Virus record (IMG/VR): IMGVR_UViG_2671180846_000006
Direction: 5' to 3' (one strand)
From: a virus
Taxonomy: Duplodnaviria; Heunggongvirae; Uroviricota; Caudoviricetes
Length of the DNA: 4,726 bases
Shown here: positions 1,372 through 4,240 of the stretch, one piece after another
How positions within the stretch are numbered: position 1 is the stretch's first letter
Layout: every line of letters begins with the position of its first letter
Translations under genes and position numbers: made by a program
The notes under the pieces: generated by a model
What the model was told of the DNA's origin: nothing
Seen by the model: only the letters and a program-made list of their open reading frames with translations
The model's database searches: none

Positions 1372-1403
1372 AAAAAGATAACGCATTGATTGCGTTATCT
1401 TTT
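1372..1403. terminator. Bidirectional intrinsic terminator-like hairpin at the 3' end of the DicA-like gene
   Basis: Perfect 9-bp stem GATAACGCA (1377..1385) / TGCGTTATC (1391..1399) with a 5-nt loop, extendable by A:T pairs. Flanked by AAAAA (1372..1376) on one side and TTTT (1400..1403) on the other, so it reads as hairpin plus U-tract on both strands. The stem includes the dicA stop codon (1395..1397). Confidence 0.5.
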
Positions 1404-1802
1404 GTTTGTTCGTTGACGGGCTTTTAATAACTCTTCAAAGAGTTTGTTGAAATTTTTTACTCGGGCGCGCATCTCGGTGAGCTGAGCATCCTGTTCTGAT
1501 TCAGGCAATGCATTAAAAAGCTCAAGGAGCTCATGTTCTTTGGGGGATAGAGCAACTGGCTCCTCAATAGGTGGTGATGGCTGCTTGTCTTCATCGCCAA
1601 ATAGAATCCATGTTGGCGAGCACTGCAGTACTTTGCTGAGGGCAAAAAGATTCTTTCCTGTAGGTTCGCTATCATCCCGCTCCCATTGTGAAACCGATAC
1701 GTGAGAAATTTTCAGGACTTTAGCAAGAGACCTTTGGGTGTATTTGAGGTTTTTTCGGCGATATCTAATGCGTTCGCCAATGGTTAAATTTTTTGTATCC
1801 AT
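1395..1802 (-). CDS. dicA: DicA-like prophage repressor (XRE-family HTH, CI analog, 135 aa, no C-terminal S24 peptidase domain)
   Basis: Translation MDTKNLTIGERIRYRRKNLKYTQRSLAKVLKISHVSVSQWERDDSEPTGKNLFALSKVLQCSPTWILFGDE... has an N-terminal XRE-type helix-turn-helix (QRSLAKVLKISHVSVSQWE) and a length and sequence I recognise as K-12 Qin DicA-like. Divergent from a Cro-like gene and flanked by repeated operators. Confidence 0.88.
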   Translation of the reverse strand: MDTKNLTIGERIRYRRKNLKYTQRSLAKVLKISHVSVSQWERDDSEPTGKNLFALSKVLQCSPTWILFGDEDKQPSPPIEEPVALSPKEHELLELFNALPESEQDAQLTEMRARVKNFNKLFEELLKARQRTNKR

Positions 1803-1824: not shown

Positions 1825-1853
1825 TTGACTATGTTTTTGTTAACATCTATTTT
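1825..1853 (+). promoter_or_regulatory. Putative sigma70 promoter for the DicC-like gene
   Basis: -35 TTGACT (1825..1830), 17-nt spacer, -10 TATTTT (1848..1853). Operator O3 overlaps the -10 and start region. AAGGTG ribosome-binding site at 1874..1879, 6 nt before the ATG at 1886. Confidence 0.45.
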
Positions 1854-2113: not shown

Positions 2114-2547
2114 TCACGGAAGCATTCTGGGCTCTGAAAGAACGCCCGAACATCGATGTTCAACGCATCACGTTTAATGATGGCGAGGTTGATCAACGGG
2201 CACTGGGCGTTAACCGGGTGAAGATATTCGAACGCTGGAAGGCTATCGACACCAGGGATAAGCGTGAAAAATTCACGGCGCTGATTCCGGCAATTATGGA
2301 GGCTATCCGGATTAGTGATTTCAGGTTGTACCGCGAAATTACTGACGGAAAAAGCATTACGTACATGATTGCCGGGTTAAACAAAGAATATGGCGATGTG
2401 GTGGAGTCCGGGCTGCTTTTTGCAGATCCAGCTGTTGTGGAACGTGAGACAGACGAGCTTATAGAAAAAGCAATCGCTTTCAAGCGTGCCTATCGTCACC
2501 AGTACCAACAAAAAGCCGGATGGAATTATGAGCCTTCTTTTTGCTGA
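2105..2547 (+). CDS. Probable YdaT-like protein (CII-functional-analog family), 5' end lost in the N-run
   Basis: This frame is open from the gap to TGA at 2545..2547. The visible 147 aa (...KIFERWKAIDTRDKREKFTALIPAIMEAIRISDF...ELIEKAIAFKRAYRHQYQQKAGW) resemble what I recall of Rac/CP-933P YdaT, and the gene sits in the CII position after the Cro analog. The ORF track's GTG start at 2218 is unlikely to be real because the frame is open upstream. Family assignment is from memory. Confidence 0.5.
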
Positions 2548-3493
2548 ACGCCCGCTGGTTATAAACACACAGCTGGCGATGAAGATTGGTTTAAACGAAG
2601 CCATTGTGTTGCAGCAACTGCATTACTGGTTGAGGGATACCAGTTCCGGCATGGAATGTGATGGCGTTCGCTGGATTTACAACACAACGGAACAATGGCT
2701 GGAACAGTTTCCGTTCTGGTCAGAGTCAACGTTAAAGCGTGCGTTTGCAAGTCTGAAAGCGCTGGGGCTTTTGCGTAGCGAAAAGCTCAATAAATCGAAG
2801 CGTGATATGACTAATTTTTACACAATTAACTACGATAGCGCGCTTTTAGATGATGGCAAAGTGAACGAATCCATCGGGTCAAAATGCGCCACTCCATCAG
2901 GTCAAAATGACACGATGGAAGAGGTCAAAATGAAACGTTCCATTGGTTCAAAACGGCCCAATGTCATCAGGTCAAAATGGCCCGATGATCCTACAGAGAA
3001 TACAACAGAGAATACAACAGAGAATAAAAAACTCTCTTGTCCGGACGCTTCGCAACCGGACGAGTTGACGGCTGAACAGGCGTTTTTAACCCGCCATCCT
3101 GATGCAGTTGTGTTCAGCGTGAAAAAACGCCAGTGGGGAACCCGGGAGGATTTGACATGTGCGCAGTGGATCTGGGGGCGGGTTGTAAACCTGTACGAAC
3201 AGGCTGCCAGTGACGATGGTGAGATCACGCGACCGAAAGAGCCCAACTGGACGGCGTGGGCCAATGACGTGCGCACAATGCGGATGCTGGATGGAAGAAG
3301 TCACAGACAAATTTGCGAAATGTTCAGCCGGGCACAACGGGATCCGTTCTGGATAAAAAACATCAAGAGCCCGGAAAAACTCCGTGAGAAATGGGATGAA
3401 CTGGTTATTCGACTGTGGCGTGGTCCCGCGCAGCGTTGCGTGAATCATATTTCTGAACCGGATACCGAAATTCCGCCGGGTTTCAGGGGGTAG
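2528..3493 (+). CDS. Phage replication initiator (lambda O-like replisome organizer) with iterons inside the coding sequence
   Basis: 322-aa ORF from ATG 2528 (MSLLFAERPLVINTQLAMKIGLNEAIVLQQLHYWL...); the track's 335-aa version starts at GTG 2486 with no ribosome-binding site. N-terminal winged-helix-like domain, then a low-complexity linker encoded by direct repeats, then a C-terminal domain. Immediately followed by a DnaC-like gene. Overlaps the upstream ORF by 20 nt. Confidence 0.75.
   Translation: MSLLFAERPLVINTQLAMKIGLNEAIVLQQLHYWLRDTSSGMECDGVRWIYNTTEQWLEQFPFWSESTLKRAFASLKALGLLRSEKLNKSKRDMTNFYTINYDSALLDDGKVNESIGSKCATPSGQNDTMEEVKMKRSIGSKRPNVIRSKWPDDPTENTTENTTENKKLSCPDASQPDELTAEQAFLTRHPDAVVFSVKKRQWGTREDLTCAQWIWGRVVNLYEQAASDDGEITRPKEPNWTAWANDVRTMRMLDGRSHRQICEMFSRAQRDPFWIKNIKSPEKLREKWDELVIRLWRGPAQRCVNHISEPDTEIPPGFRG
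2872..2979. repeat. Iteron array: 4 good copies and 1 degenerate copy of CATCAGGTCAAAATG at about 23-bp spacing (putative ori)
   Basis: Core GGTCAAAATG at 2877, 2900, 2923 and 2970, with a degenerate GGTTCAAAACG at 2945. The 15-mer CATCAGGTCAAAATG is identical at 2895..2909 and 2965..2979; 2872..2886 differs at one base. Located in the linker of the O-like gene, the classical lambdoid origin position. Confidence 0.6.
2994..3029. repeat. 12-bp tandem repeat ACAGAGAATACA x3 (third copy imperfect), encoding TENTTENTTEN
   Basis: Directly visible perfect tandem copies at 2994..3005 and 3006..3017, and an imperfect copy at 3018..3029. In frame within the O-like ORF. A-rich, followed by AAAAAA, immediately downstream of the iterons. 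Confidence 0.9.
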
Positions 3494-3499
3494 CGCATC

Positions 3500-4240
3500 A
3501 TGAAAAACATTACGTCAGGTGGTGTTCTGGCAAGAGTCAGCAGATTTGTGCCGCAGGATGCAATCCCTCCGTACCGTACGGTGACGGAGTGGCGGGAATG
3601 GCAGCTTGCTGAAGGGCGTAAGCGAAGCGAGGAGGTTAATCGTCTGAATCATCAGACGCGGGTTGAAAAAATCATTAACCGCTCCGGTATCCAGCCGCTT
3701 CACCGGAAGTGTACGTTCGGTAACTACCGGGTGCAGAACGATGGTCAGCGCCATGCCCTGAGTCAGGCGAAATCCATTGCGGCAGAGCTGGAAGGCGGCT
3801 GTACGAATTTTGTTTTCAGTGGCAGGCCTGGCACAGGAAAAAACCACCTGGCGGCGGCTATTGGCAACCACCTTCTGGCGAAAGGTCGCAGTGTGATTGT
3901 GATAACAGTGGCGGATGTGATGCTGGCGTTACATGGCAGCTACGACAACAAAAACTCGGGCGAAAAATTTTTGCAGGGATTGTGTGGCGTTGACCTGCTG
4001 GTACTGGATGAAATTGGCATGCAACGGGATACGCGTAATGAGCAGGTCACGCTGAATCAGATTGTTGACCGCAGAACGGCATCGTTACTCAGTGTGGGGA
4101 TGCTGACAAATCTTAACCATGCAGCGATGAATACACTTCTCGGCGAGCGGGTGATGGACCGCATGTCCATGAACGGTGGTCGCTGGGTGACGTTTAACTG
4201 GGAGAGCTGGCGTCCGAACGTCAGCCAGCACAGGAACTGA
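3500..4240 (+). CDS. DnaC-like helicase loader (IstB-like AAA+ ATPase)
   Basis: 246 aa with Walker [16 protein letters not shown] and Walker [14 protein letters not shown] lies 9 nt upstream of the ATG at 3500. Starts 6 nt after the O-like stop, the usual O/P-type pairing. Confidence 0.85.

Follow-up and report, generated by a model that had tools for sequence, protein, structure and literature searches.

A putative replication origin within the initiator gene of a lambdoid Escherichia coli prophage

Origins of replication that lie inside the gene of their own initiator represent a known design. Plasmids of the RepA_N family carry iterons inside the rep gene. In bacteriophage lambda, iterons are located within the O gene and are followed by an A+T-rich tract (PMC7466680), while the SPP1 origin oriL, in gene 38, consists of direct repeats, which are bound by gp38, and an A+T-rich element (PMC6316719). 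For the Rac prophage, too, an active origin has been reported, namely oriJ (PMC3945230). The DNA considered here, which is referred to as the window, is a stretch of 4,726 nucleotides from a virus of the class Caudoviricetes (IMG/VR record IMGVR_UViG_2671180846_000006). Its segment 2849-3061 is very probably the vegetative origin of a lambdoid E. coli prophage, situated in the linker-coding part of the prophage's own initiator gene and bound by that initiator. The element is an uncharacterised member of the known design, and its DNA-binding module comes from a different, uncharacterised family.

Lambda and its Stx-phage variants resemble this locus in several respects: the origin is in the middle of the initiator gene, four to six dyad-symmetric iterons with a CAAAA(C/T)G-type centre are spaced about 20-24 bp apart, a purine-rich, A+T-rich tract follows the iterons, the genes are ordered cro, cII-like, initiator, and loader, the C-terminal domains (C-domains) of the initiators are homologous, and a boundary of module exchange is found just to the right of the A-rich tract. 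The annotated lambda record shows four iterons (TCCCTCAAAACGAGGGA) inside O, and then a purine-rich A+T tract, which contains CGTCAGAGAATT. In contrast to lambda, the prophage initiator has an N-terminal domain (N-domain) without detectable similarity to that of O, its partner is a DnaC/IstB-type AAA+ loader rather than P, and its A-rich tract is made of three sequence-conserved 12-mers. A preliminary description of the window had likened this arrangement to the lambda origin and had interpreted it as the prophage origin. The architecture, with iterons inside the initiator gene and then a low-stability A+T-rich tract, is borne out, and the interpretation is supported by every computational test that might have spoken against it, namely those of repeats in homologues, conservation, module swaps, linker, fold, stability, C-domain homology, and loader.

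SPP1 is similar in having direct repeats and an A+T-rich unwinding element within an initiator gene. The repeats of gene 38 can be seen in its sequence and are different from the prophage iterons, and gp38 (G38P) was rejected as a homologue of the N-domain (hhalign probability 0.3%). A Geobacillus relative of the N-domain family has an SPP1-type G39P loader and a DnaB helicase. Rac (ydaU-ydaV of E. coli K-12) shares with this prophage a YdaT-like gene, an initiator, a DnaC-like gene, and a DUF1627 gene, as well as internal repeats in ydaU and the C-terminal tail of the initiator (PDxxIPPGFRG). On the other hand, YdaU is a DUF1376 protein whose similarity is limited to this tail, and its repeats (AAGCAGATGTTCAA) are unrelated. 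K-12 Rac ydaU/oriJ was thus rejected as a direct homologue, the tail alone being common. Four AAGCAGATGTTCAA-like repeats lie mid-gene in ydaU (L002 4472-4563), with spacings of 33, 33, and 12 bp, and oriJ may have the same layout, built around a DUF1376 initiator that is unrelated.

The preliminary description had reported four close copies and one degenerate copy of an iteron at intervals of about 23 bp. Repeat and pattern searches confirm these copies: CATCAGGTCAAAATG is matched on the plus strand at 2872 (one mismatch), 2895 (none), 2918 (three), and 2965 (none), and a repeat search adds the degenerate copy CATTGGTTCAAAACG at 2941, which results in start-to-start spacings of 23, 23, 23, and 24 bp and a span of 2872-2987. 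Five or more matches to CATCAGGTCAAAATG occurred in 0 of 200 dinucleotide-preserving shuffles (shuffle mean 0.20). The count of five, however, has to be amended, as a sixth, degenerate unit is in register at 2849-2871, and the array hence begins about 23 bp before its earlier-reported start. The same position is occupied by a good iteron in relatives, GATGAGGTCAAAGTGAC in those from Klebsiella, Citrobacter, and Enterobacter, and AGGTCAAAGTGAC in L004 and L012-L018. The units are dyad-symmetric, the best being 2893-2917 (CCATCnnGTCAnnnTGACnnGATGG). Among 57 distinct units of relatives, the inner arms GTCA/TGA are conserved and the outer arms covary, with the position pair 3/25 complementary in 89% of units vs. 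49% of shuffled ones, a comparison that is only indicative, since it is inflated by shared ancestry. As single-stranded DNA (ssDNA), the array folds into hairpins (z = -2.6). By analogy with lambda, such dyad units would fit binding by dimers of the initiator.

Deletion variants of this array are found among the relatives. The 290-aa proteins P0023 and P0025 lack exactly 31 residues, which corresponds to 93 nt and is equivalent to 2872-2964. Because 93 nt is the distance from iteron 1 to iteron 5 (23+23+23+24), such a deletion is the expected product of recombination between iterons, and variants of this type probably mark origin-defective prophages. They resemble in-frame deletions of the lambda origin, which, according to one report, are included among four lambda origin mutations (PMC6022878).

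According to an AlphaFold2 model built from a 49-sequence alignment, the initiator has three parts: (i) residues 1-110, which are confidently predicted (predicted local distance difference test (pLDDT) 80-92) with the topology H-H-E-E-H-H-E-E; (ii) a predicted disordered linker of residues 111-180 (pLDDT <50), encoded by 2858-3067; and (iii) a helical C-domain after residue 180. The repeats at 2849-3031 encode residues 108-168, between the DNA-binding-type N-domain and the C-domain, which agrees with their earlier placement in an inter-domain linker. In a Foldseek search of the PDB, the N-domain falls among DNA-binding winged-helix proteins. It is best matched by 4pql and 5kbj (the N-domain of a staphylococcal plasmid RepA and a Rep-DNA complex), with probabilities of 0.98-1.0 and template-modelling (TM, target) scores of 0.46-0.55 at 16% identity, and winged helix-turn-helix proteins of the MarR/ArsR type are matched as well. 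The winged-helix, iteron-binding fold of the RepA_N staphylococcal plasmid initiators is therefore the best structural match of the N-domain. Unlike these initiators, the N-domain has no Pfam RepA_N match, so that the likeness is at the level of the fold and membership in the family is not claimed. No Pfam model covers the N-domain, and the initiator as a whole has no Pfam match at E≤0.01; at E≤10, only unrelated sub-threshold matches appear, with neither RepA_N nor Phage_rep_O, which we take to be the model of the lambda O N-terminal DNA-binding domain, among them.

In the C-domain, residues 237-297 (3236-3418) align with residues 213-273 of lambda O (hhalign probability 95.8%, E 7.5e-9, 50% identity), while nothing aligns in the N-domain. 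The preliminary designation of the protein as an O-like initiator consequently holds for the C-domain but not for the N-domain. Since the downstream partner here is a DnaC-like AAA+ loader, the fold of the lambda O C-domain may not be specific for P; this loader is the presumed partner of the initiator C-domain. The last ~20 residues (303-321, encoded by 3434-3490; RCVNHISEPDTEIPPGFRG) resemble the very end of the DnaT protein of E. coli at its C-terminus (NCBIfam E 0.003; E 0.007-0.025 against the DnaT chains 6aep, 2ru8, and 9zbt in the PDB). The same tail is present in YdaU of Rac, and a relative in a Klebsiella phage, which has a different C-domain, retains VPAGFRS. This shared tail is likely a docking peptide; a paper on the DnaT preprimosome offers no explanation for it. 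An open reading frame (ORF) of 124 aa on the minus strand over the origin (2902-3276) was rejected as spurious, as it is antisense within conserved initiator coding sequence.

Homologous initiator genes carry repeats at the position equivalent to the array. A comparison of iterons in related prophages, which the preliminary description had proposed, indicates that all loci with the same N-domain have a GGTCAAAATG-type array at the same place and in the same register. For instance, the Klebsiella phage vB_VIPKPNMC05 retains the N-domain, six iterons, and the 12-mers, together with an unrelated C-domain and without a DnaC gene. Conversely, the E. coli loci L005, L006, L019, and L021 retain the C-domain and the DnaC-like gene together with an HTH_36-type N-domain and different repeats, which are GTCAAAATCTGACCC at 15-bp spacing or CCCGATCCGTCAG. 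More distant N-domains are accompanied by iterons of their own; for example, a Citrobacter locus has CCGCAAACnAGAATGCGG spaced at 23 bp, and a metagenomic locus has CCGCAACYTGACCAG spaced at 21 bp. The iterons thus track the N-domain and not the C-domain, which suggests that iterons and N-domain form one exchangeable module, and the C-domain and loader another. Lambdoid O genes are known for such module exchange.

Loci with HTH_36 initiators have a motif of their own at the position of the 12-mers, GATCCGTCAG(T/A)(A/T)AAA, which contains a Dam site and occurs twice, ~21-24 bp apart (L005 2967-3000, L019 2750-2788, L023 ~2867-2900, and L010 ~980-1000); in L010, both this motif and 12-mers are present. 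In phage mEp460 (L003 3042-4449), the same initiator and origin are found at 88% identity, with five iterons, and no DnaC-like gene follows the initiator, the gene there being annotated LygF. Because mEp460 has no DnaC-like gene downstream, the initiator may be able to work with the DnaC of the host.

The N-domain belongs to a wide family, as 4671 clusters at 50% identity match it at E≤1e-10 and a profile of it gives 1162 matches. The family has the signature GLNEAIxLQQxHYWL...WIYNT...WLEQFPFWS and the invariant residues P9, A17, G21, Q30, W34, W49, Y51, T53, Q60, R71, and T95. The N-domain of the window is 45-74% identical to seven of eight cross-phylum members and 27% identical to the eighth, from Citrobacter sp. 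FP75 (L017); identities of 45-55% are found in Bacillus, Deferribacterales, and Hyphomicrobiales genomes. Members are also present in phages of Staphylococcus (phage 96, 42E, phiIPLA88), Bacillus (TP21-L), Lactobacillus (mv4 orf292), Geobacillus, Listeria, Pseudomonas (AF), Erwinia (PEp14), Vibrio (SSP002), Flavobacterium, and Xanthomonas. In every relative examined, 21-23-bp iterons directly follow the N-domain; their centre resembles CAAAATG, and their dyad flanks differ between lineages (GTC..GAC in the window, GGGC..GCCC in Erwinia, GTG..CAC in Flavobacterium, and CCC..GGG in Xanthomonas and Listeria). The C-domains are lambda O-like, DnaB_2 (DnaD-like), Phg_2220_C, or none that is recognised, and the partner genes encode a DnaC-like loader, a primase-helicase, or a G39P-type loader with a DnaB helicase. 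P0244, P0250, and other proteins of 400-880 aa have two tandem copies of the N-domain and no Pfam domain. A DNA-binding domain without a Pfam model hence marks a replication cassette (N-domain, 21-23-bp CAAAATG-centred iterons, and CAGAGAnTA, a motif described below) that recurs in phages of many phyla. No fewer than three kinds of partner-binding C-domain (lambda O-like, DnaD/DnaB_2-like, and Phg_2220_C) are joined to it, and with its help the origins of many phages and prophages could be predicted from their sequence.

Directly to the right of the iterons, the three tandem ACAGAGAATACA units and A-run noted in the preliminary description were recovered by Tandem Repeats Finder (2993-3026, period 12, 2.8 copies, 100% matches), with the third unit continuing into AAAAAA at 3026-3031. 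The segment 2992-3031 is the least stable 40-mer of the initiator gene (dG -44.9 kcal/mol vs. a window mean of -54.4, sd 4.1; 2.3 sd), is 72% A+T and 75% purine on the top strand, and its 12-mers are unpaired in the ssDNA fold. This low stability fits an unwinding element, the instability being moderate and not extreme. The core of the 12-mers, CAGAGAnTA, has 32 plus-strand copies in a 600-nt zone after the N-domain in 19 lineages vs. three copies elsewhere on both strands of 82 kb, which amounts to ~2.8 vs. 0.02 per kb. Seventeen of 22 loci have the strict motif, solely on the coding strand after the iterons, and it directly follows the iterons in phages of E. coli, Klebsiella, Erwinia, Pseudomonas, Bacillus, Geobacillus, Staphylococcus, and Lactobacillus. 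In the Firmicutes Bacillus and Lactobacillus, copies are 9-12 nt apart, so that one DNA motif is read as RDY, TET, or SET. On these comparisons, the 12-mer sequence is conserved well beyond the demands of A+T-richness; the tract is A-rich, as the preliminary description had it, but it is not mere filler, since its motif is conserved across phyla.

What this conservation means can be read in two ways. Tentatively, we propose that CAGAGAnTA is a sequence-specific origin element, like 13-mers or DnaA-trios, which would be recognised, probably as ssDNA, by the initiator with the winged-helix N-domain, as this domain is the sole component common to all carriers of the motif. It is possible, in this sense, that the motif has been kept from Firmicutes phages to enterobacterial prophages together with the CAAAATG-centred iteron. 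If so, the ~4700 clusters at 50% identity would make up a large cross-phylum family of phage replicons, as yet without a name, whose origin is readable directly from sequence, and specific recognition of the motif would provide a simple system in which to study how an iteron initiator selects the strand and the site that open. This cross-phylum element may be the sole part of the finding that is new. The other reading, for which a serious if not a winning case can be made, keeps the origin but regards the 12-mers as a generic, easily melted spacer, conserved through common descent and not through recognition by a protein. In lambda, replacement of the AT-rich tract left the binding of O to the iterons unaffected, and a role in unwinding is ascribed to this tract (PMC7466680); moreover, Vibrio SSP002, Flavobacterium, Xanthomonas, and the metagenomic lineage L030 do without strict CAGAGAnTA and have just related A/T-rich repeats. 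However, CAGAGAnTA persists although iteron flanks and N-domains have diverged across phyla, the latter to 45-55% identity, its copies are concentrated after the N-domain, and it is kept in different reading frames, while drift would be expected of a tract that is merely A+T-rich.

Quite unlikely is the possibility that the repeats are initiator sites used mainly for regulation (autoregulation, copy control of the handcuffing type, or exclusion of related phages) and that replication starts elsewhere in the prophage. The iterons of plasmids do serve both initiation and control, a double role that would suit such an explanation, as would the fact that the unwinding or start site is not mappable computationally. 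Cloned copies of the lambda origin are reported to inhibit related phages (PMC3349717, PMC4488673). Against a mainly regulatory role, no further copy of the iteron is found in 13 kb of the identical prophage region, where all matches with up to one mismatch are within the initiator gene, and a conserved repeat tract of low stability always follows the iterons, as in the proven origins of lambda and SPP1 oriL.

Selection on the nucleotide sequence itself is indicated by an alignment of 11 diverse enterobacterial homologues. The entropy of third codon positions is 1.00 bit in the N-domain, where 7% of these sites are invariant, as compared with 0.38 bit and 57% in the 11-nt iteron cores (Mann-Whitney p=4e-6) and 0.14 bit and 73% in the 12-mers (p=1e-6), and the codon periodicity of conservation vanishes in the iteron/12-mer segment. 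Furthermore, as 23 is no multiple of three, the iteron core occurs in each of the three reading frames (codon phases 2, 1, 0, 2, 1, 1) and yields unrelated peptides (GSKC, SGQND, EVKMK, IGSKR, IRSKW), which means that the repetition belongs to the DNA and not to the protein. That the repeats are only a low-complexity protein linker, expanded by slippage and devoid of DNA function, is scarcely credible: the segment does encode a predicted disordered linker, the 12-mers are in frame (TENT-TENT-TEN), 24 of the 28 CAGAGAnTA copies in multi-copy loci share one codon phase, and copy number varies among relatives, but the three frames of the 23-bp units, third codon positions far more conserved than in the structured N-domain, the different translations of the same motif at 9-12-nt spacing in Bacillus and Lactobacillus, and the dyad symmetry of the units at the DNA level all argue otherwise.

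For the origin, we infer a sequence of initiator binding, oligomerisation, DNA opening, and helicase delivery. The six dyad-symmetric 23-bp units (core GGTCAAAATGAC) would each be bound by dimers of the winged-helix N-domain, which would assemble on them into an oligomeric nucleoprotein complex. This complex could then strain the adjacent purine-rich tract of low stability, with its three CAGAGAATAC 12-mers and A-run, and lead to its opening, upon which the lambda O-like C-domain and the C-terminal tail would recruit host DnaB via the DnaC-like loader that the prophage encodes directly downstream.

Several points weigh against the origin. The 12-mer tract, at 72% A+T, is just moderately A+T-rich and ranks fourth among the non-overlapping 40-mers of the window, and the segment 2790-2829, upstream of the iterons, is nearly as unstable. 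The Foldseek E-values of the N-domain are weak (0.07-0.17 for 4pql and 5kbj, and 0.07 or worse overall) despite the high probabilities. As the iterons adjoin the coding sequence of the N-domain, their co-inheritance could be plain linkage and not functional coupling, and the prophage may no longer replicate. The literature searched yielded no experiment on any member of the N-domain family; searches on the replication of mEp460 returned nothing relevant, and a full-text search for the repeat sequences as words gave unrelated primer lists only. Within the window, an Rfam scan found no family, and DnaA boxes (up to two mismatches) had 11 matches vs. 13.7 expected, with none in the origin. A scan for promoters and terminators gave nothing significant inside the origin, a weak promoter-like site on the minus strand at 2859-2832 being within chance.

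Table 1. Features of the early region and of the candidate origin, with positions in the window.
Feature	Position	Strand	Basis and remarks
DicA-like repressor gene	1395-1802	-	ORF list and domain searches
pR-like promoter, TTGACT-17-TATTTT	1825-1853	+	Consensus scan; upstream of the cro-like gene
DicC/Cro-like gene	start 1886		ORF list and domain searches
YdaT/CII-like gene	end 2547		ORF list and domain searches
Initiator gene, 321 aa	2528-3493	+	ORF list; PHROG phrog_391 'replication initiation O-like', E 8e-91
N-terminal winged-helix domain, residues 1-110	2528-2857	+	AlphaFold2, Foldseek; putative iteron-binding module
Iteron 0, degenerate, GATGATGGCAAAGTGAACGAATC	2849-2871	+	In register with the array
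Iteron 1, CATCGGGTCAAAATGCGCCACTC	2872-2894	+	Repeat and pattern search
Iteron 2, CATCAGGTCAAAATGACACGATG, best dyad CCATCnnGTCAnnnTGACnnGATGG	2895-2917	+	Repeat and pattern search, inverted repeat, dyad analysis
Iteron 3, GAAGAGGTCAAAATGAAACGTTC	2918-2940	+	Repeat and pattern search
Iteron 4, degenerate core CATTGGTTCAAAACGGCCCAATG, outer dyad CATTGG/CCAATG	2941-2964	+	Repeat and dyad analysis
Iteron 5, CATCAGGTCAAAATGGCCCGATG	2965-2987	+	Repeat and pattern search
Three tandem 12-mers ACAGAGAATACA, core CAGAGAnTA, ending in A6	2993-3031	+	Tandem Repeats Finder; candidate unwinding/loading element
Inverted repeat GTCCGG-N11-CCGGAC	3039-3061	+	Right edge of the candidate origin, start of the exchangeable C-module
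C-domain	3068-3493	+	hhalign to lambda O; DnaT-like tail
DnaC-like helicase loader gene	3500-4240	+	NCBIfam PRK12377, E 8e-143; DnaC equivalog model, E 1e-90
DUF1627 gene	start 4270		After the DnaC-like gene

At the right edge of the origin (Table 1), the GTCCGG/CCGGAC inverted repeat occurs once per locus in 15 loci, including that of Lactobacillus phage mv4, in which the left arm falls in a different reading frame (L033 2516-2534). As a universal third origin element it was rejected, since the relatives from Bacillus, Staphylococcus, Pseudomonas, and Erwinia lack it.

The region of the initiator gene, 2486-3493, has a 100% identical counterpart in a prophage region of E. coli O26 RM10386, and the early-region layout around it is that of a Qin/Rac-like lambdoid prophage, with the gene order cro-like, cII/YdaT-like, initiator, and loader. 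The loader gene also matches Pfam IstB_IS21 and Bac_DnaA and the PHROG 'DnaC-like helicase loader'. By analogy with lambda, rightward transcription from the pR-like promoter would cross the candidate origin and could have a role in its activation. The 321-aa initiator gene is annotated as 'hypothetical protein' in RefSeq, and of 5426 complete E. coli genomes, 1745 contain a stretch of at least 80% of its length, mostly at ~88% identity; the gene is also found in the isolated phages mEp460, HannyBb, and PhiR42_1. The present result places the very probable origin of the prophage, names its initiator and loader, and corrects this annotation in ~1,700 complete E. coli genomes.

A run of 52 Ns at 2053-2104 covers the point where the DicC/Cro-like gene meets the YdaT/CII-like gene, and both genes look truncated or fused in the ORF list. 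On both sides of the DicA-like repressor gene there are copies of GCCATGACTAACA, three exact and one with two mismatches, at 1312-1324 and 1347-1359 on the plus strand, 1853-1865 on the minus strand, and 1858-1870 on the plus strand. Four matches are reached in 0 of 200 shuffles, and the copies resemble operator sites of the OL/OR type in the immunity region.

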